NCBI GenBank assembly: GCA_965207945.1
Contig: OZ242303.1
Location: forward strand, 61,199-125,198
DNA length: 64,000 bases
Source of the DNA: Gammaproteobacteria bacterium
Lineage (GTDB): Bacteria; Pseudomonadota; Gammaproteobacteria; CBDBNL01; JAAOII01
Direction of reading: 5' to 3'
Position numbers and translations under genes: made by a program
Shown here: positions 15,244-64,000 of the stretch, in pieces
Layout: every line of letters begins with the position of its first letter
How positions within the stretch are numbered: the stretch's first letter is position 1
Notes under the pieces: model-generated
Seen by the model: only the letters and a program-made list of their open reading frames with translations
The model's database searches: none
Told to the model about the DNA's origin: nothing

Positions 15244-15254
15244 GTAGTGTTATA

Positions 15255-40476: not shown

Positions 40477-40591
40477 GGAACCACATAAAGTTATGGATAA
40501 TTTTATTAAAACAATGATGTCGCTCCACATTATTTATAAATTTAGTGCGGGTCCTCTCCATCTCGTCCAATTCACTCAAACCTACTTATAT

Positions 40592-42352: not shown

Positions 42353-42540
42353 ATTTGTAAGGGGGGGATAATACATATATAAGTGCGTTGCGAGCATGAG
42401 GATAGTTTATAGCAAGAGTTAAACATTTAGCGGACGGAGCCAGGGGGGATGAATATAGGCCCTCCGCCCCTACAGACCTGAGTTGCAAGGATTTATGTAT
42501 TATGTAAATTTGTGGACGCTGTAAAATAATTGATATGGCG

Positions 42541-42570
42541 GTTGTATTTTGGAGGGGATAGTGTTATAAT
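42541..42570 (+). promoter_or_regulatory. Candidate sigma-70 promoter for P2: TTGTAT, 17 bp, TATAAT.
   Basis: -35 at 42541-42546, a 17-nt spacer and a perfect -10 at 42564-42569. It lies in the 285-bp gap upstream of the second GLUG-repeat gene. Confidence 0.4.
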
Positions 42571-42646
42571 GGGCTTCTGTTAAATAAAGGGATTTAATAG
42601 AAGGGATTATTATACAAAGGGGATTTATACACAAGGGGTGATTCAA

Positions 42647-48908: not shown

Positions 48909-48933
48909 TATGATTAACAGGGAGGATTAATTT

Positions 48934-51690
48934 ATGCAAGCGGAGGTTATTAAAACAAGGGCTATTATGGCTGTCTTGTTGCTGGCAGCACTGTTCAGCG
49001 GCTGCAGTTCCAGCAGTAAATCAAACAGCAGTGGGGCGTCACAGAATCCAGCGCAGAGTCGCGGGGAAGCCAGGGAAGAGCTGGGGACGATAAAAGAACC
49101 GGCTTCAAGTGGCGAGATAAACAATGAATATAGTCCAGGCAGTGGGCGTCTTATTGTTAAGTTGGAAATTCTTGATAACTTAATTAGTTATGAGCAGGTA
49201 TCGTATGCGCGAGTCCATATAACTCCGCAGGACCTGACGGGCAAGGTGGGAGAATATTTATCGCTGCCAGAAGATTCCGCACCACAAGATGAGATTCCAC
49301 TTGACATTGATGCCTCGCTGGGCATTGATGTAGCGCTTAGCGTGGGGGATGAAAGCGCCCGTCTGGACTTTGGCTATGTTGCTTTTGGACGCTACATCCT
49401 CAATGCGACAATCTATCATAACAACGGCAGAGCTCTTGCTTATAGCGAATTACTTATTGATGTTGGCTTGGCGGACGATGTCCAAGTTGGCGACTCCCAA
49501 GTTGGCGACTCCCAGATTGACGACACCCAGATTGACGACACCCAAACAGGCGAAGCAGAAGTTCCAATAGAGTATATTCGTCCGAATCCTGATGCGACAG
49601 ATACCGCTTTAGCGGAATATACAGCTACACTCATTTTTGATTTATCTTCGGCTTTGTTTCGTCTGGTAACTCTGCCGTTAGTTTTTACTGATGATGATAA
49701 TGATGGACTACTGGATGTCTGGCATCCCGCCTATCTTGCAGCAATTGCTAATGACTTAGATGGCGGATTGGATGGCAGCTATGAACTGACAGAAGATATT
49801 GACTTATCTTCCTATGATAACCGGGGAAACTGGGACAACCGGGGAAACTGGCAGCCACTGGGCAGTGAAGAGCAGCCCTTTAGGGGAACTTTTGTTGGCA
49901 ATGGTCATAGCATTAGAGGTCTCTCCGTCAAGGGACATAGCAGAGCCGGCTTATTCGCCGCTTTAGATGGAGCGAGCGTAAGAGACCTGATGGTTGAGGT
50001 GTGGCAGATTAATGCATCTAACTATAATGATGCTTCATATAGCGCTGGTTTTGCGGGAGCTGTTGCGGGGCTTGCCACTCATAGTACTTTTGCCAACATT
50101 ACAGTTGAGATGAATTCTTATGACGATGAATCACCATACATAACTGCATTTGCACAAGATGGTGTAACTTATGTTGGTGGCTTGGTTGGCCGCGTCAGGA
50201 ATAGCGTCATAGATAACACAACAATTATGGCGAACGGCATAATATCAGCCATGTCATTGGGAGATGACTATAGGGCACGTTCTTACGTTGGTGGATTGGC
50301 TGGATTAGTTAATCTATTCAATGAAATTACAAATGTTGAAGTTGTTGGGGAAGTTGATTTGCTGGCGAGCAGCTTTGATGGGGTATCAATGGGTGGTCTG
50401 ATAGGGTCGCTAACAAGGAGTGAAGTTAGTGCGGCAAGGGTTGCACTTAGCGGCGACATAATATCTTATAGTGATAATAATTATTTATTATCTGGCGGCG
50501 CAGTGGGAGAATGCAGCAGCTCTCCTATTGTTGATATGAATATTTTTGTTGAAGGAAATATACTGGCGGAATCATCCGGGGGTGGTGGTGATGTCTATGT
50601 TGGCGGAGCTATTGGGGAAGCAGACCGTTGCAACATTATCAATTTAAAAACAGATACTTATGGGACCATTAGCACTACAGGCAGTTATGCGGATAGAACT
50701 TATTTTAGCACAGGAGGTTTAGTGGGTTTTAGTCAACGGACGGAAACTAATCATGTTACGGTTACGCATAATGGCGATTTGCTTTCATTGGGTGATTCTT
50801 GCTATGTTGGTGCTGTAGTGGGTTACTCCTATTATGAAATAATGAATAATGTATCCGCAACAATTAATGGCAATCTAATCGCTGGAGCACCTAATAGTGA
50901 AGTTGGTATTTCTTTTAATTGCCATGTCGGGGGTATACTCGGTTATTCAGAAAATCTTATTGTAAGCAATTCTTATGCCATAGTTAATGGAGATGTTCTC
51001 TCTTATGCTAATAATAACCCTGCTAAGGCGGGAGGAATTGTGGGGAAAAATGAGAAAGACATAGAAATTGATAACTCTTATGCATTGATTAAAGGCAACT
51101 TGGCTGCCACTTCATTTTTTGCGCCGACTTATATAGGCGGTTTGGTTGGCGACTCTGATGGTGAGCTGTTGATAGTCCATGATTCTTATGTTCAGATTTT
51201 AGGCAATATAACCCTGCGGAGTATTTTTTCTGAGGATGAAAATGTCTCTTCTGGTGGAAACTTTGTTGGCATAACAAAGGGAGCTTATTTTGCTAACTCT
51301 TATGTTTTTATTGGCGGCAAGGCATCTGCCATAAATATACCGGTGCTCGGCACTTCTTCACCAGCCGTCTTTGGCGGTGCCTGGGGTGAGACAAAGATGA
51401 CTAACAATGACCCATATAGTATAACGTTGAGCTCGTCTTATTATAGGTCGCAGCGCGAGTTAGGTGAGGGTGGTTTTAATAGCGCTGAAGTGGACGGTGA
51501 TGCGATTGATGTAGATCGCAGTGACTTGCAACTACGTTGCCCGCAAGCGGCGGGACAAAATTGCGGAGGAGCCGTAACGCCAGGCAATCCGCAAACTTAT
51601 GTCGGTTGGGATGAGAGCGTATGGGACTTTGGTGCGGCAGACGAACTGCCCAGATTAAGAGTTTTTCCAAGTACTAATTTATTGGATTGA
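48934..51690 (+). CDS. P4: GLUG-repeat surface lipoprotein (918 aa), a member of the near-identical paralog set P4-P8.
   Basis: The GGAGGATTAATTT-ATG ribosome-binding site and lipobox LFSGC are conserved. So are the N-terminal ~130-aa block (GRLIVKLEILDNLISYE…), the DDDNDGLLDVWHPAYLAAIA and NWQPLGSE(E)QPFRGTFVGNGHSI(R/S)GLS module, and the C-terminus QLRCPQAAGQNCGG…TPGNPQTYVGWDESVWDFGAADELPRLRVF. Confidence 0.8.
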   Translation: MQAEVIKTRAIMAVLLLAALFSGCSSSSKSNSSGASQNPAQSRGEAREELGTIKEPASSGEINNEYSPGSGRLIVKLEILDNLISYEQVSYARVHITPQDLTGKVGEYLSLPEDSAPQDEIPLDIDASLGIDVALSVGDESARLDFGYVAFGRYILNATIYHNNGRALAYSELLIDVGLADDVQVGDSQVGDSQIDDTQIDDTQTGEAEVPIEYIRPNPDATDTALAEYTATLIFDLSSALFRLVTLPLVFTDDDNDGLLDVWHPAYLAAIANDLDGGLDGSYELTEDIDLSSYDNRGNWDNRGNWQPLGSEEQPFRGTFVGNGHSIRGLSVKGHSRAGLFAALDGASVRDLMVEVWQINASNYNDASYSAGFAGAVAGLATHSTFANITVEMNSYDDESPYITAFAQDGVTYVGGLVGRVRNSVIDNTTIMANGIISAMSLGDDYRARSYVGGLAGLVNLFNEITNVEVVGEVDLLASSFDGVSMGGLIGSLTRSEVSAARVALSGDIISYSDNNYLLSGGAVGECSSSPIVDMNIFVEGNILAESSGGGGDVYVGGAIGEADRCNIINLKTDTYGTISTTGSYADRTYFSTGGLVGFSQRTETNHVTVTHNGDLLSLGDSCYVGAVVGYSYYEIMNNVSATINGNLIAGAPNSEVGISFNCHVGGILGYSENLIVSNSYAIVNGDVLSYANNNPAKAGGIVGKNEKDIEIDNSYALIKGNLAATSFFAPTYIGGLVGDSDGELLIVHDSYVQILGNITLRSIFSEDENVSSGGNFVGITKGAYFANSYVFIGGKASAINIPVLGTSSPAVFGGAWGETKMTNNDPYSITLSSSYYRSQRELGEGGFNSAEVDGDAIDVDRSDLQLRCPQAAGQNCGGAVTPGNPQTYVGWDESVWDFGAADELPRLRVFPSTNLLD
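49483..49555 (+). repeat. Internal 15-bp x~5 in-frame repeat in P4 (QVGDS QVGDS QIDDT QIDDT QTGEA). Shorter versions occur in P5 (~52273-52310) and P8 (~60511-60565).
   Basis: caagttggcgactcc and cagattgacgacacc units lie head to tail. Confidence 0.8.
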
Positions 51691-51715
51691 CATGATTAAC
51701 AGTGAGGATTAATTC

Positions 51716-54442
51716 ATGCAAGCGGAGGTTATGAAAGCAGGGGGGATTACAACAAAGGGGATTACAACAAGAACTGTTATAGTGTTTTTGTTGCTGGCAG
51801 TCCTGTTCAGTGGCTGCAGTTCTAGCAGCAACTCAGGTGGTGCAAAATCGCCAGGGACGCCACAGCAGCCAGAGCAGAGTCGCGGGGAAGCTAGAGGAGA
51901 AGCTGGCGCGGGGCAACAACCGACTTCAAGCCCAATTTCAAGCGGTGAGATAAACAATGAATATACTCCTGGTAGTGGTCGCCTTATTGTTAAGTTAGAT
52001 ATTCTTGATAACTTAATTAGTTATGAGTCAGTATCGTTTGCGCGAGTATATATAACTCCGCTGGGCATAGATGCTGCGCATGATATTGATGACTCGCTGG
52101 GCATAGATGCCTCGCTTAGCATTGATGTTGCGCTTGATGTGGGAGATGAAAGCGCCCGTCTGGATTTTGGTTATGTTGCTTTTGGACGGTATATCCTCAA
52201 CGCGACAATCTATCACAGCAACGGCAGTGCTCTTGCTTATAGCCAGTCACTTATTGATATTGGTTTGGCGGATGACACCCAAGTTGGCGACACTCAAACA
52301 GGCGAAGCAGAAATCCAAATAGAATATATTCGTCCGAGTCCTGATGCAACAGATCCCAACTTAGCGGAATATACTGCCACGCTCATTTTTGATTTATCTT
52401 CATCTTTATTTCGTCTGGTAACTCTGCCATTAGTTTTTACTGATGATGATAATGATGGACTACTGGATGTTTGGCATCCCGCATATCTTGCGGCAATTGC
52501 TGATGACTTGACTGGTAGTTATGAATTAACGGCAGATTTGGATTTATCCTACTATAACGGTTGGGGTAACTGGCAGCCGCTGGGTAGTGAAGCATTACCT
52601 TTTAGCGGAACTTTTGTCGGCAATGGTCATAGCATTAGCGGACTCTCTAGCAAGGGATATAACAAAGCTGGCTTATTCGCCGTTGTAGAAGGAGCGAGCA
52701 TAACCGACCTTATAGTTGAGGCGTGGCAGATTAATGCATCGGACTATTACTATTCAAACGGTAATTTAAACGGAGATTTAAATGGGGCTTCTTATGCTGG
52801 CGTTGTTGCAGGTCTTGCCCGTTCCAGCACTTTTGCCAACATCACAGTTGTGATGAATTCTTATGACGATGAATCACCATATATAACTGCGTTGGCGCAA
52901 GATGGCGCAACTTATGTTGGTGGTTTGGTTGGTCGCGCCAGCAATAGCATTATAGCTAACACAACAATTGTGGCGAGTGGCATAATATCAGCCAATGCCT
53001 GGGGGAATAATAGTAGAGCGAAATCTTATGCTGGTGGGCTGGCAGGGTTGGTTGATGAAGGCAGTGAAGTTATGAATGTTGCGGTTACTGGGGAAGTTGA
53101 TGTGCGGGCGGACGGATTAACTGAAGCATTATCAGGCAATAAGTATGCTGGCGGTTTGTTAGGTAGAATAAATGATAGCAGAATAAGCGCGGTGAAAGTT
53201 GAGCTTAGTGGCGACATAATAGTTGATAATGGCAATTATTTATCAGCGGGCGGTGCAGTGGGCAACTGCAGGCACTCTTCCGTTGTTGATATGAATATTA
53301 TTATTGCTGGCAATATATTGGCGGAGTATTCTGGCAGGAATAACGATGCGGCTGCTGCTGGAGTACTTGGTGAGGTATTTCGTTGTGACATTACTAATGT
53401 AGTAAGCAAGTTCTTCGGTTTAATCAGCGCTGAAGGTTATGGTTATGTGACTGCAGGAGGGTTAATGGGATATGCTGAATATACGGCAATCAGCAATGTT
53501 AAGGTTACCCACCATGGCGATTTACTCTCATCAGGTGATTATTGCTACGTTGGCGGTTTAGCAGCTTACCACTCTTCATCTACTGCTCCCATACATAATT
53601 CATCCGCAATAATTAATGGCAATATAATTGCGGGGGTACCTAATAGTGAAGTCGGAGTTTACCTTGATTGCGAAGCTGGAGGGATGATTGGTTATTTATC
53701 TGGAGGCACTATTAATAGTTCTTATGCCATAGTTAATGGAGATGTTCGCTCTTATTCTAGTGGTAAACCTTCTGAGGTGGGAGGATTTGTGGGGAGTGGC
53801 ACTGGTGAACTAAAAATTGAGAAATCTTATGCATTGATTAAAGGTAACTTGGTTGCCTCTTCATTTTTTGCGCCAACTTATGTTGGCGGTGTAGTCGGCA
53901 TCTCTTATGGTTCGTTGGTGACAGTCCGCGATTCTTATGTTCATATTTTAGGCAATATAACCCTGCGGAGTATTTTGTCTGAGGATGACGCCATTTCTTA
54001 TGGTGGCAATTTTATCGGCAGAGTAAAGGGAGCTAATTTTGCTAACACTTATGTTTTTATTGGTGGCACGGCATCTGCCATAAATATACCAGAGATCGGT
54101 ACTTCCTCGCCGGCTATCTTTGGCGGCGTTTGGGGTGCTATTTCAAAGAGGACTGCCAATGAATCGCATAATATCACATTTAGCTCTTCTTATTATAGAT
54201 CGCAGCGCGAGCCAAGGGAGGGTGATTTTAACAGCGCTGATGTGGGCGGCGATGCAATTGATGCGGCTCGTAGTGATTTGCAACTACGTTGTCCGCAAGC
54301 GGCGGGACAAAATTGTGGCGGACTCATAACACCAGGCAACCCACAAACTTATGTCGGTTGGGATGAGAACGTATGGGACTTTGGTGCGACGGACGAGCTG
54401 CCCAGATTAAGAGTTTTTCCAAGTACTAATTTATTGGATTGA
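51716..54442 (+). CDS. P5: GLUG-repeat surface lipoprotein (908 aa), paralog of P4.
   Basis: It has the same conserved 5' and 3' blocks and ribosome-binding site as P4, with a divergent central repeat region. Confidence 0.8.
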   Translation: MQAEVMKAGGITTKGITTRTVIVFLLLAVLFSGCSSSSNSGGAKSPGTPQQPEQSRGEARGEAGAGQQPTSSPISSGEINNEYTPGSGRLIVKLDILDNLISYESVSFARVYITPLGIDAAHDIDDSLGIDASLSIDVALDVGDESARLDFGYVAFGRYILNATIYHSNGSALAYSQSLIDIGLADDTQVGDTQTGEAEIQIEYIRPSPDATDPNLAEYTATLIFDLSSSLFRLVTLPLVFTDDDNDGLLDVWHPAYLAAIADDLTGSYELTADLDLSYYNGWGNWQPLGSEALPFSGTFVGNGHSISGLSSKGYNKAGLFAVVEGASITDLIVEAWQINASDYYYSNGNLNGDLNGASYAGVVAGLARSSTFANITVVMNSYDDESPYITALAQDGATYVGGLVGRASNSIIANTTIVASGIISANAWGNNSRAKSYAGGLAGLVDEGSEVMNVAVTGEVDVRADGLTEALSGNKYAGGLLGRINDSRISAVKVELSGDIIVDNGNYLSAGGAVGNCRHSSVVDMNIIIAGNILAEYSGRNNDAAAAGVLGEVFRCDITNVVSKFFGLISAEGYGYVTAGGLMGYAEYTAISNVKVTHHGDLLSSGDYCYVGGLAAYHSSSTAPIHNSSAIINGNIIAGVPNSEVGVYLDCEAGGMIGYLSGGTINSSYAIVNGDVRSYSSGKPSEVGGFVGSGTGELKIEKSYALIKGNLVASSFFAPTYVGGVVGISYGSLVTVRDSYVHILGNITLRSILSEDDAISYGGNFIGRVKGANFANTYVFIGGTASAINIPEIGTSSPAIFGGVWGAISKRTANESHNITFSSSYYRSQREPREGDFNSADVGGDAIDAARSDLQLRCPQAAGQNCGGLITPGNPQTYVGWDENVWDFGATDELPRLRVFPSTNLLD

Positions 54443-54467
54443 TATGATTAGCGGAGAGGATTAATTT

Positions 54468-57170
54468 ATGCCAGCGGGGGTTATGAAAGCAGGAGGGATT
54501 CAAACAGAGAGGATTCAAATCGGGGAGATTCAAACAGGGGGAATTCAAACAGAGAGGATTAAAACAAGGGCTGTTATAGTGTTTATGTTGTTGGCAGTTC
54601 TGTTGCTGACAGCACTGTTCAGCGGCTGCAGTTCCAGCAGCAACTCAGGTGGTGCAAAATCGCCAGGGACGCCACAGCAGCCAGAGCAGAGTCGCGGTGA
54701 AGCGGGAGGAGAAGCTGGCGCGGGACAACAACCGACTTTAAGCCCAATTTCAAGAGGAGTAATAAACAATGAATATACTCCTGGTAGTGGTCGTCTTATT
54801 GTTAAGTTAGAGATTCTTGATAACTTAATTAGTTATGAGTCAGTGTCGTTTGCGCGAGTATATATAACTCCACTGGGCATAGATGCTGCGCAGGATATTG
54901 ATGCCTCGCTTAGCATTGATGTTGCGCTTCGCTTGGGGGATGAAAGTGCCCGTCTGGATTTTGGTTATGTTGCTTTTGGACGCTATCTCCTCAATGCGAC
55001 AATCTATCATAACAACGGCAGTGCTCTTGCTTATAGTGAATTGTTTATTGATGAGACAGATCCCAGCTTAGCGGAGTATACAGCTACGCTCGTTTTTGAT
55101 TTATCTTCGTCTTTGTTTCGTCTGGTAACTCTGCCATTAGCTTTTACTGATGATGATAATGATGGACTACTGGATGTTTGGCATCCCGCCTATCTTGCAG
55201 CAATTGCTGGCGACTTGACTGGTAGTTATGAATTAACGGCAGACCTGGACTTATCCTCCTGGGGCAACTGGCAGCCGCTGGGCAGTAGAGTTCAGCCCTT
55301 TGAAGGAATTTTTGTTGGCAACGGTCATCGCATCAGCGGTCTCTCCAGTCGGGGATATAGCAGCGCCGGCTTATTCGGTGTTGTGGAAGGAGCAAGCATA
55401 ACAGACCTGATGGTTGAGGTGTGGCAGATTAATACATCGGGCTATTATTCTTTAAATGGACATTTTTTAAGCAGTAATTCAAGCAGTAATTCAAGCAGTG
55501 ATTCAAGCGGTGCTTCTTATGCTGGTGCTGTTGCGGGAGCTGTTGTAGGTTTGGCACGTTCTAGTATTCTTGCCAACATCACAGTTATGATGAGTTCTTA
55601 TAATAATGAATTGCCATATATAACTGCATTTGGGCAAAATGAAGCAACTTATGTTGGCGGCTTGGTTGGTCACGCCAGCAATAGCACAATAGCAAACACA
55701 ACAATTATGGCAGCAGGACTAATATCGGGAGCTTCATCAATAGTTAAAAGTTATGCCAAAACTAATGTTGGTGGTTTGGCGGGGTTCGTTGATAATGGTA
55801 GTGATATTATAAATGTTGCGGTTACAGGTAAAGCGGATGTGCAGGCAGGTGGACTCCTTAATGTATTGTCAGGCAATTATATATCTGGCGGACTGTTAGG
55901 GAGAATAAGGCATAGCAGAATGAGAGAGGTAAGAGTTGCACTTAGCAGTGACATAACAACCTATAATGGTAAATTTTTATCAACCGGCGGCGCAGTGGGC
56001 GAATGCTTCAGGTCTTCTGTTGTTGATATAAATATTGTTGTTGCTGGCGATATACTAGCGGAGCATCCGCTCACTAATGGATATGCGTATGCTGGCGGAG
56101 TACTTGGCGAAGCTTATGAGTGCGGCATTACTAATGTAGTAAGTGAGACGTTCGGCTTAATCAGTGCTGTAAGTTCCAGTTTTACGTCTGCAGGAGGGCT
56201 AGTGGGTTATGCCGAATATGTGACAATCAGCAATATTAGGGTTGCCCATCATGGTGATGCATTCTCATCGGGTAAGTATTGCAACGTCGGTGGTTTAATG
56301 GGTTACTACTCTTTTTTAGATGATGAATCCATAAATAATACATCCACAATAATTAATGGCAATCTAATTGCCGGGAAGGATAATAATCCAGCAAGAATTC
56401 ACTTTAATTGCCAGATAGGAGGGATGATTGGTTATTTGGAAGGCGGCGCCATTAATAATTCTTATGCCATAGTTAGTGGAGATGTTCAATTATATTCTAA
56501 TGGAGAGAATGTTGCGGTGGGAGGAATGGTGGGGCGCAGTGCAACAGACATATTGGAGATTACGAATTCTTATGCATTGATTAAAGGCAACTTGGCTGCC
56601 GTTTCATTTTTTGCGCCGGCTTATGCTGGTGGTTTGGTTGGCATCTCTGAGGATAAATTTATGACAGTCCGCAATTCTTATGTTCAAATTTTAGGCAATA
56701 TTACTCTGCGGAGTATTTTGCCAGAGGATGATGCCATCTCTTATGGTGGCAATTTTATTGGATTAGTGGAAAGAGCTAGCGGCAGTTTCACTAACACTTA
56801 TGTTTTTGTTGGCGGCGCGATATCATCTATTCGTGATTCCTTGCCGGCTATCTTTGGCGGCACTCGGGGGAGTATTAGTACTGCCAAAGAATCGCATAAT
56901 ATCACATTTAGCTCGTCTTATTATAGGTCGCAACGCGAGCTAAGCGAGGGTGATTTTAACAGCGCTGAAGTGGGTGGCTATATAACTGATGTGGCTCGCA
57001 GTGATTTGCAACTACGTTGTCCGCAAGCGGCGGGACAAAACTGCGGCGGACCTGTAATGCCGGGTAATCCGAAAACTTATGTTGGTTGGGATGAGAGTGT
57101 ATGGGACTTTGGTGCGGTGGACGAGCTGCCCAGATTACGAGTTTTTTCTCTAATCAATATATTGGATTAA
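54468..57170 (+). CDS. P6: GLUG-repeat surface lipoprotein (900 aa), paralog of P4.
   Basis: It has the same conserved blocks. The signal-peptide n-region carries 5 copies of the 15-bp pentapeptide repeat (GIQTE RIQIG EIQTG GIQTE RIKTR). Confidence 0.8.
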   Translation: MPAGVMKAGGIQTERIQIGEIQTGGIQTERIKTRAVIVFMLLAVLLLTALFSGCSSSSNSGGAKSPGTPQQPEQSRGEAGGEAGAGQQPTLSPISRGVINNEYTPGSGRLIVKLEILDNLISYESVSFARVYITPLGIDAAQDIDASLSIDVALRLGDESARLDFGYVAFGRYLLNATIYHNNGSALAYSELFIDETDPSLAEYTATLVFDLSSSLFRLVTLPLAFTDDDNDGLLDVWHPAYLAAIAGDLTGSYELTADLDLSSWGNWQPLGSRVQPFEGIFVGNGHRISGLSSRGYSSAGLFGVVEGASITDLMVEVWQINTSGYYSLNGHFLSSNSSSNSSSDSSGASYAGAVAGAVVGLARSSILANITVMMSSYNNELPYITAFGQNEATYVGGLVGHASNSTIANTTIMAAGLISGASSIVKSYAKTNVGGLAGFVDNGSDIINVAVTGKADVQAGGLLNVLSGNYISGGLLGRIRHSRMREVRVALSSDITTYNGKFLSTGGAVGECFRSSVVDINIVVAGDILAEHPLTNGYAYAGGVLGEAYECGITNVVSETFGLISAVSSSFTSAGGLVGYAEYVTISNIRVAHHGDAFSSGKYCNVGGLMGYYSFLDDESINNTSTIINGNLIAGKDNNPARIHFNCQIGGMIGYLEGGAINNSYAIVSGDVQLYSNGENVAVGGMVGRSATDILEITNSYALIKGNLAAVSFFAPAYAGGLVGISEDKFMTVRNSYVQILGNITLRSILPEDDAISYGGNFIGLVERASGSFTNTYVFVGGAISSIRDSLPAIFGGTRGSISTAKESHNITFSSSYYRSQRELSEGDFNSAEVGGYITDVARSDLQLRCPQAAGQNCGGPVMPGNPKTYVGWDESVWDFGAVDELPRLRVFSLINILD
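54492..54566 (+). repeat. A 15-bp tandem repeat of 5 copies in the 5' coding end of P6. The same repeat family is present in 2 copies at 51740-51769 (P5), 4 copies at 57205-57264 (P7), 5 copies at 59955-60029 (P8) and 1 degenerate copy in P4.
   Basis: The unit is (g/a)(g/a)gg(g/a)gatt(c/a)aaaca. It is in-frame and encodes the pentapeptide G-I-(K/Q/T)-T-x in the signal-peptide n-region. Confidence 0.85.
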
Positions 57171-57195
57171 TATAATTAACGGAGAGGATTAATTT

Positions 57196-59907
57196 ATGCA
57201 AGCAGGGGGGATTAAAACCGGGGGGATTAAAATAGAGAGGATTAAAATAAAGATTATTAAAACAAGAGCTGTGATAGTGTTTTTGTTGTTGGCGGTTCTG
57301 TTGATGACAGCGCTGTTTAGTGGCTGCAGTTCCAGTGTCAACTCAAATAGTAGCGATACTACACAGAATCCAGAGCAGAGTCGCGGGGAAAGCAGAGAAG
57401 AACTGGGAGAAGAATCTGGAGCAGTAGAACAACCAAATTCAAGCCCAATTTCAAGAGGAGTAATAAATAATGAATATAGCCCAGGCAGTGGCCGTCTTAT
57501 TGTTAAGTTGGATATTCTTGATAACTTAATTAGTTATGAGTCGGTATCGTTTGCGCGAGTCCATATAACTCCGCTTGACATTGATGCTGCGCTGGGCATA
57601 GATGCTGTGCAGGGCATTGATGTTTCGCTTGGCATAGATGCTGTGCAGGGCATTGATGTTTCGCTTGGCATAGATGTTGCGCTTCGTGTGGGCGATGAAA
57701 GCGCTCGTCTGGACTTTGGCTATGTTGCTTTTGGACGCTACTTCCTCAATGCGACAATCTATCATAGCAACGGCAACGCTCTTGCTTATAGTGAATTACT
57801 GATTGATGCAACAGACCCCAGTTTAGCGGAATATACAGCAACGCTCGTTTTTGATTCATCTTCGGCTTTGTTTCGTCTGGTAACTCTGCCACTTGTTTTC
57901 AATGATTATGATAATGATGGACTACTGGATGTTTGGCATCCCGCCTACCTTGCGGTAATTGCTAGCGACTTAGATGGCAATTATGAATTGACGGCAGATT
58001 TGGATTTATCCTCCTATTCTAACTGGCAGCCACTGGGCAGTGAAGATCAGCCCTTTAGAGGAACTTTTGTTGGCAATGGTCATCGCCTCAGTGGTTTATC
58101 CAGCAAGGGATATATGAATGCCGGCTTATTCGGTGTTGTGGAAGGAGCAAGCATAACAGACCTAATAGTTGAGGCGTGGCAGATTAGTTCCTTGGACTAT
58201 GATAACTCCAATGCAGGCGCTATTGCGGGGTTAGCCCGTTCCAGCACTTTTGCAAATATCACAGTTGTGATGAGTTCTTATGACGATGAATTATCTTATA
58301 TAACTGCGGTTTCTCAAGATGATACCGTTAGTGCAGGCGGTTTGTTTGGTCGCTTCAGAAATAGCACTATAGCTAACGCAAAGATTATGGCAGCAGGACT
58401 AATATCAGGAATTTCATCAAAAGTTGAAGGTTCTGCCAAAGTTTATGTAGGCGGCTTGGCAGGATATGTTTATAGGGGTAGTGATATCATAAATGCTGAG
58501 GTTATGGGTAAAGTGGATGTACAGGCAGGCGGTATCTTTGGAAATTCAACGGGCGATTATAAATCTGGCGGACTGATAGGGAGAATTAGTCGTAGCCGAC
58601 TTAGAGAGACAAAAATTATGCTTAGCGGAAACATAACAACTCATAATGGAGATTATCTAACATCTGGCGGCGCGATGGCTAAATGCGGGAGTTCTTCTGT
58701 AGTTGATATGGATATTGTTATTGTTGGCAATATACTGGCGGAAAATCCCACCATTAAAGATAGCGTCCTTGCCGCTGGAGTTATTGGTGAGAACAGTAAT
58801 TGTAGTATAAATAATGTAACGGCAGAAATATTTGGTTCAATAAGAGCCACCTCCACTTATGCTAAGTATGCGTTTTCTGGAGGGGTACAGGCAGGAGGGG
58901 AAAATAAATACGTTACTGATGTAACTCAAATTAGTGATATTATGGTTACAGTTCATGGTGATGTGCTTTCTTCAGGAAAGAAATGCGCTTCTGGGGGTTT
59001 GGGAGGAAACCAGAATAACAACATTAATATAAATAATTCGTCTGTAACTATTTATGGCGATATAATTGCTGGAAATCTTATAGAGGGAGACACTTATTTT
59101 ACTTGTAGTGGTGGAGGAATATTCGGCTCATTAAGTGGAGGAGTTATTAATAATTCTTATGCCATAGTTAATGGGGATGTTCGCTCTTATGCTAATGGAA
59201 GAACTTCTAAGGCGGGAGGCATGGTGGGCGTTAATATCTATCCATTAGAGATTATGAATTCTTATGCATTGATTAAAGGTAATTTAGATGCTACTGCATT
59301 TATTAAGCCAGTTTATGTTGGTGGCTTTGTTGGCAACTCTTATGGTTCACTATTTGTAGAGCGCAATGATTATGTCTCGTCGTTAGGCGTTCGTGATTCT
59401 TATGTTCAGGTTTTAGGCAATATGACCCTGCGGAGTATTTTGCCCGAGGATAATGCCCTCTCTTATGGCGGCAACTTTATTGGTGTAGGACAGACAAGCA
59501 TTTTCACCAACACTTATGCTTTTGTTGGTGGCACGATATCAGCTATTATTGATTCCACACCAGCCACTTTTGGCGGTATCCAGGGGCGTATTATAGATGG
59601 GAGTTTCGTAAAGGCGGCACGCGATGAACTACATAATATTTCATTAACCTCATCCTATTATAGGGGGGAGAGAGATCTAAGTGAGGATAACTTTAATAGC
59701 GCTGATGCTGACGGGGATGCAGTTTCTGCAGCGCGTAGTGATTTGCAACTGCGTTGTCCGCAAGCAGCGGGACAAAACTGCGGCGGACCTGTAATGCCTG
59801 GCAATCCGCAAACTTATGTCGGTTGGGATGAGAGCGTATGGAACTTTGGTACGCCAGACGAGCTTCCCAGATTACGTATTTTTTCAAACATTAATATATT
59901 GAATTAA
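57196..59907 (+). CDS. P7: GLUG-repeat surface lipoprotein (903 aa), paralog of P4.
   Basis: It has the same conserved blocks, 4 N-terminal pentapeptide repeats, and an internal 36-bp x2 repeat (GIDAVQGIDVSL). Confidence 0.8.
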   Translation: MQAGGIKTGGIKIERIKIKIIKTRAVIVFLLLAVLLMTALFSGCSSSVNSNSSDTTQNPEQSRGESREELGEESGAVEQPNSSPISRGVINNEYSPGSGRLIVKLDILDNLISYESVSFARVHITPLDIDAALGIDAVQGIDVSLGIDAVQGIDVSLGIDVALRVGDESARLDFGYVAFGRYFLNATIYHSNGNALAYSELLIDATDPSLAEYTATLVFDSSSALFRLVTLPLVFNDYDNDGLLDVWHPAYLAVIASDLDGNYELTADLDLSSYSNWQPLGSEDQPFRGTFVGNGHRLSGLSSKGYMNAGLFGVVEGASITDLIVEAWQISSLDYDNSNAGAIAGLARSSTFANITVVMSSYDDELSYITAVSQDDTVSAGGLFGRFRNSTIANAKIMAAGLISGISSKVEGSAKVYVGGLAGYVYRGSDIINAEVMGKVDVQAGGIFGNSTGDYKSGGLIGRISRSRLRETKIMLSGNITTHNGDYLTSGGAMAKCGSSSVVDMDIVIVGNILAENPTIKDSVLAAGVIGENSNCSINNVTAEIFGSIRATSTYAKYAFSGGVQAGGENKYVTDVTQISDIMVTVHGDVLSSGKKCASGGLGGNQNNNININNSSVTIYGDIIAGNLIEGDTYFTCSGGGIFGSLSGGVINNSYAIVNGDVRSYANGRTSKAGGMVGVNIYPLEIMNSYALIKGNLDATAFIKPVYVGGFVGNSYGSLFVERNDYVSSLGVRDSYVQVLGNMTLRSILPEDNALSYGGNFIGVGQTSIFTNTYAFVGGTISAIIDSTPATFGGIQGRIIDGSFVKAARDELHNISLTSSYYRGERDLSEDNFNSADADGDAVSAARSDLQLRCPQAAGQNCGGPVMPGNPQTYVGWDESVWNFGTPDELPRLRIFSNINILN
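57580..57690 (+). repeat. Internal 18/36-bp in-frame repeats in P7 (GIDAVQ GIDVSL x2 plus flanking LGIDAA/LGIDVAL units).
   Basis: ggcatagatgctgtgcagggcattgatgtttcgctt is duplicated exactly. Confidence 0.8.
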
Positions 59908-59945
59908 TATATTGAATTAATATAATTAAAAGAGAGAATAAATTT

Positions 59946-62678
59946 ATGCGAGCCGGGGGGATTAAAACAAAGGGGATTAAAACAAAGGGGGATAAAACAG
60001 AGATGATTAAAACAGGGGGGATTAAAATAAAGGGGGCTATTATAGCTGCCTTGTTGCTGGCAGCGCTGTTTAGCGGCTGCAGTTCCAGTGTCAACTCAAA
60101 CAGTAGCGATCCGCCACAGAACCCAGAGCAGAGTCGCGGGGAAGGCAGGGAAGAACTGGGAGCAGAATCTGGAGCAGTGGAACAACCAAATTCAAGAGGA
60201 GCGATAAACAATGAATATAGTCCGGGCAATGGGCGTCTTATTGTTAAGTTGGAGATACTTGATAACTTAATTAGTTATGAGTCGGTATCGTTTGTGCGAG
60301 TAGATATAACTCCTCAGAGCATAGATGCTGTGCAGGGCATTGATGCCTCGCTTAGCATTGATGTTGCGCTTCGCGTGGGGGATGAGAGTGCCCGTCTGGA
60401 TTTCGGCTATGTCGCTTTTGGACGCTACCTCCTTAATGGGACAATCTATCATGGCAACGGCAACGCTCTTGCTTATAGTGAATTGCTTATTGATGTTGGT
60501 TTGGAGGACGACCCCCAGATGGACAACATCCAAATCGGCGTCGCCCAAACGGGAGAAACAGAAATACCAATAGAATATATTCGCCCGAATACTGATGCAA
60601 CAGATCCCGCTTTAGCAGAGTATACAGCCACGCTCGTTTTTGACTCATCTTCTGCTTTGTTTCGTTTTGCAACTCTGCCACTTATTTTCACTGATGATGA
60701 TAATGATGGACTACTGGATGTTTGGCATCCCGCCTACCTTGCAGCAATTGATGGCGACTTAGATGACAGTTATGAATTGACGGCAGATTTGGATTTATCC
60801 TCCTGGGGCAACTGGCAGCCACTGGGTGATGATGCACAGCCCTTTAGAGGAATTCTTATCGGCAATGGTCATCGTATCAGCGGTCTCTCCAGTAAGGGGT
60901 ATAGCAGCGCTGGCTTATTCGGTGTTGTGGAAGGAGCGAGCATAACAGACCTGATAGTTGAGGCGAGGCATATTAATGCATCGGGCGGGTATTTAAATGA
61001 AATTTTAAACAATGCTAGTTTTGCGGGAGCTGTTGCGGGGCTTGCTCGTTCCAGCACTTTTGCGAACATCACAGTTGTGATGAGTTCTTATGACGATGAA
61101 TCGCCCTACATAACCGCATTTTCTCAGGATGGTGTATCTCATGCCGGCGGTTTAGTTGGTCGTGCCAGCAATAGCACCATAGCCAATACAACGATTGCGG
61201 CAAGCGGCATAATATCAGTTACCTCTTGGGGGGATAACTTTTATTTAGAATCTTATGCTGGTGGACTTGCGGGGTTGGTTGATGAGGGCAGTAGAATTAT
61301 GAATATTACGGTTACCGGGGAAGTTGATGTGCTAGCAAATGGTATAAGTGAAGCATCACCAGGCGACCGTATCTCAGGCGGCTTAATAGGGGTGATAGAT
61401 GAAAGCCAAATTAGCGCAGCAAGGGTTATGATTAGCGGAAATATAAAAACTGATAATGGTGAATATTTATCATCTGGTGGTGGAATGGGTTCTTGTGGCA
61501 GTTCTTCTATTACTGACGTGAATATTGTTATTGTCGGAAATATACTGGCGGATAATTTTGTATCTGGTGATACCTTAGCTTCTGGCGGAGCTATTGGCGG
61601 GATTAGCAGTTGCACCATAACCGATATAAAGGTAGAAATATTTGGTTCAATAAGAACTATCACTGATTATTATGCTTATGCCTTTTCTGGGGGGCTATAT
61701 GGATACATTGTTGATGGTTCTCAAATTAGTAATATCAAGGTTACAGTTCATGGTGATGTATTTTCTTCTGGAGGGGAATGCGCTTCCGGGGGGATGGGGG
61801 GATACCAGGGTAGCAATATCAATATGAATAATTTGTCCGCAACTATTTATGGCGATATAATTGCTGGGGAGTTTATAGAGAACGATATTATTATTGCCTG
61901 TAATGGTGGGGGGATGCTTGGTGAATCACGAGGAGGCGTTATTAATAGTTCGTCCGCCATAGTTAAAGGAGATGTTCTATCTTATTCTAACGGGGATTCT
62001 GCTGAGGCAGGAGGAATGGTGGGACGCAATACAGCCCCATTGGAGATTATGAACTCTTATGCATTGATTACTGGAGATTTAGTTGCTACTTCATTTCTTG
62101 CATCTTCTTATGCTGGTGGTTTTATTAGCAGCTCTTATAGTCGGACTGGTATAACGAGGAATAATCTTCTTTTTAATAGGGATTCTATAGTAACGGTAGG
62201 CAATTCTTATGTTCATATTTTAGGCAATATAACCTTGCGCAGTATTTTGCCTGAGGATGACGCTGTCTCTTCTGGCGGCAATTTCATTGGCAGAGGACGG
62301 CTAAGCAGTTTTACTAATACTTATGTTTTTGTTGGCGGCACTATATCAGCCATTCGCGATTCCTTGCCAGCTATCTTTGGCGGTTCTTGGGGGACGATAG
62401 GAGGGGTTGCAGTTGACTCTTACAATATCACGCTAACCTCATCCCATTATAGGGGCGAGAGGGAGCTAAGCGAGGATGACTTTAATAGCGCTGATGCTGC
62501 TGGAGATGAAATTGCTGCGGCACGTAGTGATTTGCAACTGCGTTGTCCGCAAGCGGCAGGACAAAATTGCGGCGGAGATATAACTCCAGGCAATCCGCAA
62601 ACTTATGTCGGTTGGGATGAAAAGATATGGGATTTTGGCACGGTAGACGATCTGCCCAGATTAAGAATTTTTCAATAA
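59946..62678 (+). CDS. P8: GLUG-repeat surface lipoprotein (910 aa), paralog of P4.
   Basis: It has the same conserved blocks and 5 N-terminal pentapeptide repeats (GIKTK GIKTK GDKTE MIKTG GIKIK). Confidence 0.8.
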   Translation: MRAGGIKTKGIKTKGDKTEMIKTGGIKIKGAIIAALLLAALFSGCSSSVNSNSSDPPQNPEQSRGEGREELGAESGAVEQPNSRGAINNEYSPGNGRLIVKLEILDNLISYESVSFVRVDITPQSIDAVQGIDASLSIDVALRVGDESARLDFGYVAFGRYLLNGTIYHGNGNALAYSELLIDVGLEDDPQMDNIQIGVAQTGETEIPIEYIRPNTDATDPALAEYTATLVFDSSSALFRFATLPLIFTDDDNDGLLDVWHPAYLAAIDGDLDDSYELTADLDLSSWGNWQPLGDDAQPFRGILIGNGHRISGLSSKGYSSAGLFGVVEGASITDLIVEARHINASGGYLNEILNNASFAGAVAGLARSSTFANITVVMSSYDDESPYITAFSQDGVSHAGGLVGRASNSTIANTTIAASGIISVTSWGDNFYLESYAGGLAGLVDEGSRIMNITVTGEVDVLANGISEASPGDRISGGLIGVIDESQISAARVMISGNIKTDNGEYLSSGGGMGSCGSSSITDVNIVIVGNILADNFVSGDTLASGGAIGGISSCTITDIKVEIFGSIRTITDYYAYAFSGGLYGYIVDGSQISNIKVTVHGDVFSSGGECASGGMGGYQGSNINMNNLSATIYGDIIAGEFIENDIIIACNGGGMLGESRGGVINSSSAIVKGDVLSYSNGDSAEAGGMVGRNTAPLEIMNSYALITGDLVATSFLASSYAGGFISSSYSRTGITRNNLLFNRDSIVTVGNSYVHILGNITLRSILPEDDAVSSGGNFIGRGRLSSFTNTYVFVGGTISAIRDSLPAIFGGSWGTIGGVAVDSYNITLTSSHYRGERELSEDDFNSADAAGDEIAAARSDLQLRCPQAAGQNCGGDITPGNPQTYVGWDEKIWDFGTVDDLPRLRIFQ

Positions 62679-62723
62679 TATTGATATTATTGTATTAATA
62701 TAATCAATGGAGAGGATTAATTT

Positions 62724-64000
62724 ATGAAGTGGGGGCTTCTTATATCTGCGCTATTATTGGCTATGGCTACGACTAGCTGTAACAGAACTGAATATGTGAA
62801 TGATAGACAATTAGAGAATGAGCAAGGCATAGAACAACCGGTAGAAGAACAACCGGTAGAAGAACAACCGGGAGAAGAACAACCACCGAAGGAAGAAAAA
62901 CCACCGAAGGAAGAAAAACCACCGAAGGAAAAACCACCGAAGGAAGAAAAACCACCGAAGGAAGAAAAACCACCAAAGGAAAAACCACCAAAGGAAAAAC
63001 AACCGAAGGAAAAACAACCGAAGGAAGAACCACCGAAAGAAAAAAAACCGAAGGAAAAACCACCGAAAGAAAAAAAACCGAAAGATAAATGCCTGGATGT
63101 GGGAACAACAGATAAAGATAAAAATTTAAATAGCACATTAATTGATGGCGATGGAAACGGCTTATTGGATATTTGGAATCATCTGCAGCTTGCTGCAGTT
63201 TCCCATAATCTTACTGGTAATTATGAGTTGAAAAATCATATATCTTTATCGTCTTGCGCCAACGCTAACTGGCAGCCGTTAGGTAATGACACTATTCCAT
63301 TTAGTGGTGTCCTTGTTGGCAACGACTATGGCATAAGCAACTTAGTTAGCAAGGGCTATCGCAGCGGTGGATTATTTGGAGTTATACAAGATGCGACAAT
63401 AAGTAATCTCATAATTGATGTAAAGCATATTAACTCAACCCAATATTCTGGCTCTCTTACGGGGTTGGCTAATTCTGGTGTGCTTGAGAATATTACAGTT
63501 CGCCTGCTTTCTTCCACAGATGAGATGCCTCATATAACGGCGGTTGCTTCATCTGGCGTGGCGAATGCTGGTGGTTTAATTGGCGGAGCTAACAATATCA
63601 TCATCAATAACGCAACAATTATAGCGGCAGATAGCACAATCTCTGCTTATGCTATTGATAATAACACATCAAAAGAAGCGTATGCTGGCGGATTGGTGGG
63701 GATGCTTAACCGCGGCACTGTAACCAATACCGCGGTCATGGGTGAAGTTAATGTACTGGCGTACGCGTTAGAGTATTCAGTTTCTAAAGCCCATGCTGGT
63801 GGTTTAGTAGGAGACGTAAGAAGAAGCAAGTTAATAGATACCCGAATTGAGATTAGTGGAGATGTAATAAGTAGTAGCAAAGATTTAGTGTCGTCTGGCG
63901 GGGTGGTGGGAAATTGTTTTCATTCCCCCTTTGATGGCATGGATATAATTTTCAAAGGGAGTGTATTAGTAGTGGAGCAGAAATATTCTAATATAGCTGC
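62724..64000 (+). CDS. P9: GLUG-repeat surface lipoprotein, 3'-partial (runs off the window), with a Pro/Lys/Glu-rich (PKEEK) linker.
   Basis: An ATG at 62724 follows GGAGGATTAATTT and the lipobox is ATTSC. The (E)EQPVEEQP…PPKEEKPPKEEK… repeats are followed by DGDGNGLLDIWNHLQLAAV…NWQPLGNDTIPFSGVLVGN…GGLIG/GGLVG repeats. The ORF track omits it because no stop occurs before the window ends. Confidence 0.75.
   Translation, partial: MKWGLLISALLLAMATTSCNRTEYVNDRQLENEQGIEQPVEEQPVEEQPGEEQPPKEEKPPKEEKPPKEKPPKEEKPPKEEKPPKEKPPKEKQPKEKQPKEEPPKEKKPKEKPPKEKKPKDKCLDVGTTDKDKNLNSTLIDGDGNGLLDIWNHLQLAAVSHNLTGNYELKNHISLSSCANANWQPLGNDTIPFSGVLVGNDYGISNLVSKGYRSGGLFGVIQDATISNLIIDVKHINSTQYSGSLTGLANSGVLENITVRLLSSTDEMPHITAVASSGVANAGGLIGGANNIIINNATIIAADSTISAYAIDNNTSKEAYAGGLVGMLNRGTVTNTAVMGEVNVLAYALEYSVSKAHAGGLVGDVRRSKLIDTRIEISGDVISSSKDLVSSGGVVGNCFHSPFDGMDIIFKGSVLVVEQKYSNIA
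62832..63085 (+). repeat. Coding microsatellite-like repeats of 12-18-bp units encoding EEQPV/PPKEEK/KPPKEK in the P9 N-terminal linker.
   Basis: aaccggtagaagaac, ccaccgaaggaagaaaaa and ccaccgaaggaaaaa units recur directly in the sequence. Confidence 0.85.

Follow-up and report, generated by a model that had tools for sequence, protein, structure and literature searches.

The window analyzed here, a 64,000-nucleotide stretch of gammaproteobacterial DNA, carries tandem genes whose ends resemble one another more closely than their middles do. This pattern raises the question of whether the copies exchange sequence and, if they do, which segments move. The initial annotation implied that homologous flanks allow the variable cores of five genes, P4–P8, to be recombined. 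The genes themselves are borne out: five intact open reading frames (ORFs) on the same strand (+) occupy exactly 48934–62678 and encode proteins of 918 (P4, 48934–51690), 908 (P5, 51716–54442), 900 (P6, 54468–57170), 903 (P7, 57196–59907), and 910 aa (P8, 59946–62678). We consider it probable that they are old tandem duplicates whose ends have been exchanged by partial gene conversion, with cores that stay stable in each array position.

Each of the five window ORFs is full-length, begins with ATG behind a purine-rich spacer resembling a ribosome-binding site, and encodes a signal peptide. A further, more distant paralog, P9 (62724–64000, +; ~40% aa identity to P4–P8), begins beyond the set described initially and continues past the window end; a PKEEK-type 15-nt tandem repeat (62877–63082) makes up its N-terminal part. 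Together, P4–P8 and P9 probably constitute a tandem family of surface lipoproteins and are likely transcribed together. A scan by consensus only found no intergenic terminators between P3 and P9, which fits co-transcription. The antisense ORFs over P4–P8 can reasonably be regarded as by-products of the repeated DNA.

Each of the P4–P8 proteins comprises a lipoprotein signal peptide, a disordered linker, a lineage-restricted β-sandwich, a long GLUG-motif β-helix, and a small Cys-containing C-terminal region. Pfam Glug (PF07581) matches P4, P5, and P6 with 47.5, 31.5, and 42.4 bits, respectively (gathering cutoff 20.5). P7 and P8 give no Glug match at E ≤ 0.01; both are 65–66% identical to full-length P5. 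The AlphaFold model of P5 contains the β-sandwich at residues 85–225 and a β-helix of strand-rich repeats at 250–790 (pLDDT 85–98). Its best PDB fold matches are the IgA1-protease β-helix domains 7uvk, 6xjb, and 3n6z (Foldseek E = 3e-4 to 3e-3; target-normalized TM-score of 0.52 for 3n6z), with query-normalized global TM-scores that are low (0.17–0.21) because the targets are multi-domain. The Pfam matches of P4–P6 and the fold of the P5 model both identify P4–P8 as GLUG-motif β-helix proteins.

The streptococcal M26 IgA1 proteases and BACOVA_03286 (7uvk, 6xjb, 3n6z) have the GLUG motif and the predicted β-helix in common with P4–P8. In contrast to them, P4–P8 have no metalloprotease domain or HExxH motif and are predicted Gram-negative-type lipoproteins with a lineage-restricted N-terminal β-sandwich. 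Neither Peptidase_M26_C nor any other protease domain was found, Peptidase_M26_N is detected only below threshold in P3 and P7, and HExxH is absent from P1–P9. A protease function resembling that of the M26 IgA1-specific zinc metalloproteases ZmpA/B/C is rejected for lack of the motif and of a catalytic domain. At the N-terminus of P4–P8, a hydrophobic stretch is followed by an invariant LFSGC (Cys34 in P5 numbering). With F at position −3, the strict [LVI][ASTVI][GAS]C lipobox is not matched, but a broader PROSITE-type pattern fits by eye; signal peptide and lipobox Cys together mark P4–P8 as predicted bacterial lipoproteins. These proteins may be surface-exposed and play an adhesin-like role. 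The N-terminal β-sandwich returns 3 matches among 1.84 billion representatives, and the GLUG β-helix lipoprotein family of P4–P8 only 24 proteins among 5.8 billion clusters; a literature search for the GLUG motif returned unrelated papers only. P4–P8 thereby define a lineage-restricted family whose N-terminal domain is essentially without relatives outside the lineage.

Divergence among the window copies is uneven along the genes rather than uniform, and the central part does differ more, as had been claimed, with cores 69–75% identical. The 5′ 48-mer quoted in the initial annotation occurs once per gene with 0–3 mismatches (0 expected by chance), but the first 400 nt are not near-identical: pairwise identity is 78–90% in aligned columns and 59–81% with indels counted. 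Indels are most frequent in the first ~300 nt, which encode the signal peptide n-region and the linker and average 60–65% identity in the multiple alignment. The length of ~400 nt given for the conserved 5′ block proves to be an understatement, since the block reaches ~nt 1200 at 82–86% identity. Near-identity was also overestimated for the last ~170 nt, which are 84–92% identical; only two of the five genes contain the quoted 50-mer when up to 3 mismatches are allowed. The longest exact runs between any two window copies measure 35–62 nt. Values of pN are 0.06–0.14 for the N-terminal domain, 0.08 for the C-terminus, and 0.25–0.41 for the core, and pS in the ends still amounts to 0.2–0.45. A large part of the end conservation is thus due to purifying selection at the protein level.

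Within the window, the exchange tract that stands out most clearly joins P5 (51776–52013, +) and P6 (54573–54825, +). The two sides are 93–97% identical, whereas orthologs of either gene are 79–92% identical there, and the tract holds a 62-nt exact run from 51824 in P5 and 54636 in P6. A GENECONV-like longest-run permutation recovers 51826–51873/54638–54685 with a global p = 0.008; within the window, the other nine of ten pairs have no significant tract. Both sides carry the linker type SGGAKSPGTPQ, which is the P5 type (also found in copies B5 and C5 of the related arrays described below) and therefore suggests transfer from P5 to P6. PHI on the five window sequences is significant for the whole gene and the core only, the sub-regions being underpowered; for the 3′ region, all 43 sites fall inside one PHI window. 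The joint between β-sandwich and β-helix is the most conserved one (55146–55192, +, encoding TDDDNDGLLDVWHPAY; copies near 49683, 52439, 55146, 57908, and 60690). Its protein block is invariant, and it accounts for half of the ten longest exact runs between pairs of copies (five runs of 36–47 nt), so that crossovers are likely at this site. Taken alone, the window provides thin evidence of recent conversion. The pN contrast, the remaining pS in the ends, the shortness of the exact runs, and the nine pairs without a significant tract would all suit old tandem duplicates that never exchanged sequence, with ends kept similar by stronger purifying selection on the signal peptide, β-sandwich, and C-terminal region than on the helix surface.

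The window array (W) was compared at the DNA level with three related arrays (A, B, and C), for a total of four metagenome assemblies. Orthology is positional and 1:1, with orthologs 84–94% and paralogs 53–68% identical in aa sequence. In the core tree (alignment columns 620–960), all five ortholog groups are monophyletic with 100% bootstrap. The N-terminal tree (columns 100–400) is incongruent with it, as the P5 and P6 ortholog groups are not monophyletic (0% bootstrap); in the C-terminal tree (columns 960–1067), A5 clusters with A4, which leaves the P5 group at 0% support. Polymorphisms are distributed in the same zonal manner. Fixed versus shared differences between ortholog groups number 4:40 and 64:95 in the N-terminal blocks (68 fixed and 135 shared in sum), 2294:28 in the core, and 226:78 at the C-terminal end; the contrast between N-terminal blocks and core has a Fisher p = 5e-142 with sites treated as independent. 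Ortholog pS falls from 0.19–0.22 in the ends to 0.067 in the core. Between the window and strain A, the corresponding values are 0.24–0.25 and 0.085, compared with 0.155 for nine neighboring housekeeping genes and 0.09–0.20 for P2 and P3. The excess in the ends over these local controls is modest (1.2–1.6-fold), and the contrast between ends and core comes in part from an unusually low core pS.

Individual tracts show the same discordance. W5 and W6 are closer to each other at columns 40–140 than to their orthologs, A4 and A5 have 3′ ends in common, and A6 combines a P7-like 5′ end with a P5-like stretch at columns 465–585. B5 is 93–100% identical to W6 at columns 375–420. The last two segments, and likewise columns 480–525 of C5, represent exchange inside the first third of the β-helix. 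Tracts of 100–148 nt are 96–100% identical between non-orthologous copies, where orthologs are 78–90% identical. The presence or absence of a 49-codon module (VGLxDD...IEYIRP) is out of step with orthology; P7 is without it, and all three P7 orthologs possess it. Among 20 classifiable family proteins from outside the window, whose contigs vary widely in length and so probably represent at least seven assemblies, N-terminal domain and core differ in their best window match in 12. The moving parts are short tracts of 60–150 nt, insertion modules, N-terminal domain types, and 3′ tails. Exchange is sporadic, and variants are common to several strains.

The proposal of recombination between paralogs is thus supported by discordant tracts, trees, and shared polymorphisms, and mosaicism among strains is present both in the three related assemblies and in the family proteins. 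Duplication without exchange leaves unpredicted the three-fold higher ortholog pS in the ends than in the core, the excess of shared over fixed differences in the ends, the non-monophyly of the P5 and P6 groups there, the 100–148-nt tracts between non-orthologs, and the indel modules and domain types that disagree with orthology. As the sole explanation it is largely refuted, and we regard it as unlikely. Concerted evolution throughout each genome is also rejected, as same-genome paralogs are no more alike than different-genome ones in the N-terminal blocks (0.842 vs 0.846 and 0.862 vs 0.861); the pattern therefore needs conversion together with exchange between strains. Minor alleles are not discriminating: the share of them that also occurs in a paralog is 0.68–0.85 everywhere, because the diverged cores hold almost every base at each site.

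Apparent mosaics could also be generated by metagenome assembly, if a consensus had been formed across co-occurring strains or paralogs. All of the compared genomes are MAGs or metagenome contigs, and two related contigs, L001 and L002, are from one sample, L002 being labeled 4x. P6 is truncated in L001 and missing from L002. Ortholog identity changes in blocks along the gene, with one strain replacing another as the best match, as a strain-collapsed consensus would also produce; some of the ortholog mosaics and the missing P6 of L002 could have this origin. However, paralog-type tracts and discordant modules are found in all four assemblies, including a circular contig labeled 128x, and the same discordance recurs at the protein level in further assemblies. 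Paralogs are at least 15% apart in the ends and ~30% in the cores, so that gene-spanning long reads (a read type deduced from contig names only) should not be mis-assigned. Indiscriminate mixing of paralogs would not be expected to leave the cores clean. An assembly origin for the overall pattern appears improbable.

The cores do not take part in the exchange. In each of the 20 classifiable non-window proteins, the segment that covers the last ~60% of the β-helix is 90–100% identical in aa sequence to a single window paralog, with the runner-up at 56–63%. In conjunction with the core tree, this contradicts the idea that the variable cores are swapped through homologous flanks; the cores keep their array positions. 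A stretch of ~1 kb at 68% identity would strongly hinder strand exchange in homologous recombination, and either this heterology or selection may keep the cores separate. It is accordingly very unlikely that P4–P8 are a cassette system for antigenic or adhesin variation in which flanks let variable cores be copied from gene to gene, as in pilE/pilS, vlsE, or msp2: conserved ends around a divergent middle in a tandem array, mosaic alleles among strains, and the exchanges that enter the first third of the β-helix would be in keeping with such a system, but none of the four aligned arrays has a core out of position (100% bootstrap for all five groups, and the 2294:28 ratio), the non-window proteins agree, the window copies are full-length with start codon and purine-rich spacer rather than truncated or promoterless cassettes, and the low core identity would present a strong barrier.

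Partial gene conversion of old tandem duplicates would operate in three zones, delimited in P4–P8 by alignment columns 620 and 960. The duplications would be older than the split of the sampled strains. The exchange-prone 5′ zone (48934–50448 in P4, 51716–53206 in P5, 54468–55943 in P6, 57196–58623 in P7, and 59946–61433 in P8) makes up ~45–55% of the gene and is predicted to encode the signal peptide, linker, β-sandwich, and first β-helix rungs. Its similarity would be due in part to purifying selection and in part to recurrent short-tract exchange between paralogs, which exact runs of 35–62 nt, such as the DDDNDGLLDVWHPAY joint, may seed. Variants would thereby be pooled and N-terminal modules re-paired with cores. 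The position-specific core of ~1 kb (50449–51390, 53207–54139, 55944–56873, 58624–59589, and 61434–62396, in the same order) spans the last ~60% of the β-helix, is ~68% identical between paralogs, and is not exchanged across array positions; five distinct β-helix surfaces are thus kept as stable lineages. The 3′ zone consists of the last ~300 nt (51391–51690, 54140–54442, 56874–57170, 59590–59907, and 62397–62678) plus the spacer and is exchange-prone too; in a related strain, it apparently mediated an unequal crossover with loss of P9. Dependence on RecA-type homologous recombination can be presumed.

A more ambitious interpretation, which we find doubtful, is that the array serves as a combinatorial diversification device of an undescribed adhesin family, in which five fixed β-helix "specificity" cores are re-paired appreciably often with a shared N-terminal pool. 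Crossovers would then occur at the conserved ~45-nt joint (DDDNDGLLDVWHPAY), and expansion of 15- and 18-nt repeats in frame would be a further source of variation. Variants would arise and be selected in populations of this uncultured small-genome gammaproteobacterium, as opposed to being a slow, neutral by-product of similarity.

Segmental, non-reciprocal recombination within gene families that have conserved flanks and variable segments is well known from Neisseria pilE/pilS, Borrelia vlsE, and Anaplasma msp2. P4–P8 resemble these systems in that conserved segments flank variable ones and exchange is segmental within a gene family. They differ in having no single expression site and no truncated silent copies, and their variable cores are not transferred; with five full-length ORFs in the window and variable segments that do not move, an expression-site/silent-cassette arrangement is rejected. 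In Helicobacter pylori, babA, babB, and babC resemble one another at their 5′ and 3′ ends and diverge in the middle, and conversion yields chimeric alleles that differ between strains. The bab genes occupy dispersed loci, their ends come far nearer to identity than those of P4–P8, and whole middles are replaced, such that babA can be converted to babB. Both families thus consist of paralogous surface-protein genes with similar ends, a divergent middle, and conversion between paralogs. P4–P8, however, form a tandem, operon-like array, their ends are only 78–92% identical, and their cores are never replaced. The folds are also unrelated, bab encoding an autotransporter-like outer-membrane protein and P4–P8 a predicted lipoprotein β-helix. 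Gene conversion and chimeric bab genes are among the subjects of Helicobacter pylori reviews (PMC5483490, PMC4552749).

The Staphylococcus aureus lpl genes provide another parallel. As outlined by Tsuru and Kobayashi (2008, PMC2568036), they form a tandem lipoprotein-like cluster with a presumed role in host interaction, and a conserved sequence within every ORF is the site of homologous recombination. According to the same outline, phylogenies built from different parts of one ORF disagree, and rearrangements distinguish the strains. On that description, lpl and P4–P8 share tandem lipoprotein paralogs, region-wise phylogenetic incongruence, and strain differences. The conserved site of lpl is described as central, with variable 5′ and 3′ ends that are shuffled, whereas in P4–P8 the 5′ half and the 3′ end are exchanged and the internal core is stable.

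The mechanism is not new, being well known in families such as bab, lpl, and opa, so the general significance of the locus is modest. It does present a clean natural case of region-limited gene conversion, with pooled ends and separate cores in the same genes, and serves as an example of how far exchange can extend within tandem surface-protein families before sequence divergence, or selection, limits it. As the family occupies a large, strain-variable locus in genomes of an estimated 1.8–2.2 Mb, a role as a host- or surface-interaction determinant is plausible.

The lpl model of a "unit spanning two adjacent genes," as that report presents it, may have a counterpart in the junctions of the P4–P8 array, where a repeated block is composed of the 3′ end of the preceding gene, the spacer, and the first codons of the next gene. 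A 20-nt spacer sequence with a ribosome-binding site (TTAACRGRGAGGATTAATTT) lies upstream of P4, P5, P6, and P7, and also of P9. The P4/P5 spacer (51691–51715, +) is a 25-nt intergenic segment with a Shine-Dalgarno-like GAGGA; the equivalent spacers are 48909–48933, 54443–54467, and 57171–57195, with 62679–62723 ahead of P9. The common intergenic spacers of the initial annotation are thus present ahead of P4–P7, but the P7/P8 spacer (59908–59945, +) is divergent, longer, and AT-rich, and fails the spacer pattern even with two mismatches allowed. It overlaps a 13-nt tandem repeat (59890–59924), and TTGAAT-16-TATAAT at 59899–59926 is promoter-like by consensus match only.

Five intact ORFs of 900-918 aa each lie on one strand within 48934-62678, in agreement with the initial annotation: P4 (48934-51690), P5 (51716-54442), P6 (54468-57170), P7 (57196-59907) and P8 (59946-62678), all on the + strand. 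They are part of a longer run that includes the related genes P1 (40451-42352), P2 (42638-46333) and P3 (46356-48908). The initial annotation stops at P8, but a further paralog, P9, comes directly after it, with the conserved spacer ahead of it as well, and continues past the window end (62724-64000). Alignment gives 65-72% protein identity to P5 across P4-P8; P3 (~27%) and P9 (~40% aa identity) are far more distant. A Pfam search of the array proteins gave above-threshold GLUG matches for P4-P6 and no catalytic domain, and the HExxH motif is absent from P1-P9. Because a hydrophobic leader ends in an invariant LFSGC in all five proteins, P4-P8 are probable lipoproteins.

The AlphaFold model of P5 (24 family sequences as input, mean pLDDT 71) consists of a disordered linker, a β-sandwich (residues 85-225, moderate confidence) and a β-helix (250-790, pLDDT 85-98); the C-terminal ~100 residues are poorly modelled. 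In the PDB, the best fold matches are the β-helix domains found in BACOVA_03286 and in IgA1 proteases from streptococci and Gemella. With 3 matches among 1.84 billion representative proteins, the β-sandwich is essentially confined to the family. Full-length members number 24 in a database of 5.8 billion clusters and stem from only a few metagenome assemblies. The N-terminal part of P9 is a proline/lysine/glutamate-rich linker encoded by 12.9 copies of a 15-nt tandem repeat (62877-63082), which also gives rise to the antisense ORFs at 62717-63138 as a by-product.

The initial annotation proposed near-identical gene ends around divergent cores as a substrate for gene conversion. Its quoted 48-mer does occur in all five genes (0-3 mismatches), but the ends are less alike than claimed: the first 400 nt are 78-90% identical over aligned columns and 59-81% with indels counted, the last 170 nt are 84-92% identical, and only two of the five genes carry the quoted 3′ 50-mer within three mismatches. 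In the multiple alignment of the window copies, mean identity over the first ~300 nt is 60-65%, a low value caused by variation in in-frame tandem repeats of 15 and 18 nt. Pairwise identity is 82-86% over nt 401-1200 and 69-75% in the central part, and the longest exact run common to any two copies is 35-62 nt.

The P5-P8 leaders are unusually long because of 15-nt in-frame repeats (51742-51770, 54496-54566, 57203-57262, 59957-60035) that add GIKTK/GIQTE-like pentapeptides to the positively charged n-region of each signal peptide; their copy number varies between paralogs and between orthologs of related strains. Most length differences between copies stem from 18-nt (GIDAxL-type) and 15-nt (QIDDT-type) repeats of the β-sandwich region (52059-52127, 57572-57684, 60337-60371, 49482-49546). 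The spacers ahead of the copies are similar, 25-nt and purine-rich, and the described motif precedes P4-P7 and P9, but the P7/P8 spacer differs. In the region 59890-59945, that spacer overlaps 2.7 exact tandem copies of a 13-nt unit (ATTAATATATTGA) and has a promoter-like TTGAAT-16-TATAAT (59899-59926), a consensus match only and a possible internal promoter. A consensus scan of the intergenic spacers found no terminator-like sites between P3 and P9.

Within the window, sliding Nei-Gojobori estimates yield pN of 0.06-0.14 and pS of 0.2-0.45 for the N-terminal domain, 0.25-0.41 and 0.45-0.6 for the core, and 0.08 and 0.30-0.35 for the C-terminus. The contrast between ends and core is chiefly non-synonymous; therefore purifying selection accounts for much of the conservation, and no copy has been recently homogenised. 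The nearest neighbour nevertheless shifts along the alignment, from P5/P6 and P7/P8 (nt 200-300) to P6/P8 (nt 400-600) and P6/P7 (nt 600-700). The PHI test on the five whole genes gives p = 0.003, and one tract (P5 51826-51873 / P6 54638-54685) comes out as significant in a GENECONV-like permutation (global p = 0.008). Judged from the window alone, the evidence for exchange is suggestive, not strong.

Three syntenic arrays were compared, all from metagenome assemblies: A (L001, from OZ242292.1, 'MAG: Gammaproteobacteria bacterium', 2.06 Mb), B (L002, a 28-kb contig) and C (L004, part of a 1.79-Mb contig from a different sample). Together with the window (W), they give a codon alignment of 19 sequences and 1067 columns. 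Positional orthology is 1:1 overall, with aa identity of 84-94% for orthologs vs 53-68% for paralogs. Copy number and gene integrity differ among strains; the P6 ortholog is absent from B (P5/P7 ortholog junction at L002 12767-12791). In strain A, ~45 kb separate an SDR gene from P2 according to record coordinates (L005 12405-21317, L001 1-760), and the sampled parts contain genes for GLUG and fibronectin-III proteins (467 and 1308 aa) and for giant proteins (6068 and 6609 aa); the window counterpart (40451-42637) holds only the 633-aa P1.

Across strains the genes fall into three zones. Bootstrap support for ortholog groups is 100% for all five in the core (columns 620-960, the last ~60% of the β-helix), 0% for P5 and P6 in the 5′ domain (columns 100-400), and 0% for P5 at the C-terminal end (columns 960-1067), where A5 joins A4. 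In the same order (core, 5′ domain, C-terminal end), nucleotide identity is 0.966, 0.90-0.92 and 0.919 between orthologs and 0.68, 0.84-0.86 and 0.79 between paralogs, fixed:shared polymorphisms are 2294:28, 4:40 and 64:95, and 226:78, and ortholog pS is 0.067, 0.19-0.20 and 0.20. Ortholog synonymous divergence is thus higher exactly where paralogs are most alike. Selection alone would predict the reverse, and import of paralogous variants would predict this pattern. The excess over local controls is modest: window vs A, pS is 0.24-0.25 at the ends, 0.155 in nine neighbouring housekeeping genes (94.9% nt identity) and 0.09-0.20 in P2 and P3. Ortholog pN/pS of 0.36 in the core, vs 0.14 in housekeeping genes, indicates relaxed or partly diversifying selection.

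Individual events can be discerned. Over columns 40-140, identity between W5 and W6 is 93-97%, compared with 79-92% for their orthologs, and the linker common to W5 and W6 is of P5 type. A 118-nt stretch of B5 is identical in W6 and C6; other P5 alleles are 78-83% identical there. A6 (L001 12653-15028) combines a P7-like 5′ end with a P5-like stretch (columns 465-585); it is without the β-sandwich, and a 20-nt spacer deletion removes its Shine-Dalgarno sequence. A 49-codon module is missing in A5, W7 and A8 and present in their orthologs, and A4 and A5 have common 3′ ends. A8 terminates in a C-terminal tail of P9 type, beyond which lies the DNA normally found downstream of P9; P9 itself is missing from strain A (L001 17949-21400 vs L002, L004). 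This arrangement suggests an unequal crossover between the P8 and P9 3′ ends. Tracts of at least 96% identity between non-orthologous copies span 60-148 nt, nearly all within nt 130-1230 or nt 2130-2740. Among the 20 classifiable non-window family members, the N-terminal domain and core best match different window paralogs in 12. Over the last 60% of the helix, each member matches a single window paralog at 90-100%, with the runner-up at 56-63%. The most conserved block at the β-sandwich/β-helix joint, encoding DDDNDGLLDVWHPAY, is a plausible crossover point, as it holds five of the ten longest exact matches between pairs of copies.

A metagenome consensus artefact could partly produce the block-wise ortholog mosaics and the missing P6 in B, given the origin of every compared genome; B, moreover, shares its sample with A and has a 4x label in its contig name. 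Paralog-type tracts between unique cores, however, recur in all four assemblies and are harder to explain in this way. Classical homogenising concerted evolution is ruled out, since same-genome paralogs are no more alike than different-genome ones. So is a cassette system: every copy is a complete gene behind a purine-rich spacer, terminator-like sites are absent between the genes, and the variable cores are not transferred.

These data are consistent with an exchange between paralogs that is limited to certain regions. Short-tract gene conversion would act on the conserved 5′ half and 3′ end, with occasional unequal crossover between paralogs and spread of variants between strains, and the ~1-kb core would be kept as a stable, position-specific lineage. 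Either heterology blocking strand exchange or selection favouring five distinct surfaces may keep the cores apart. Two systems come closest as functional analogues: the bab paralogs of H. pylori and the tandem lpl lipoprotein cluster of S. aureus. In bab the divergent middle gets replaced, unlike that of P4-P8. For lpl, one study places the recombination site in a conserved intragenic segment and describes incongruent trees from parts of one ORF (PMC2568036); its geometry is inverted relative to the P4-P8 array. Exchange of this kind is a known phenomenon; what is new is the protein family and the organism that carries it.

Elsewhere in the window, a low-GC island (12755-17000, 34-38% vs about 43% elsewhere) encodes DndB-like, DndC-like PAPS-reductase-type and GmrSD/HEC-06/SspE-like nuclease proteins and is probably a DNA-modification-linked defence module. 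A sigma-70 family protein (rpoD-like, 4454-7117) is long for its family at 887 aa, with ~380 residues ahead of region 1.2. Finally, the histidinol-dehydrogenase-family gene adjoining the array (38320-39636) is 99% identical to the sister MAG copy; its next-best relatives are only 66-80% identical, and the named ones are mostly alphaproteobacterial or, per one source, sulfopropanediol 3-dehydrogenase.
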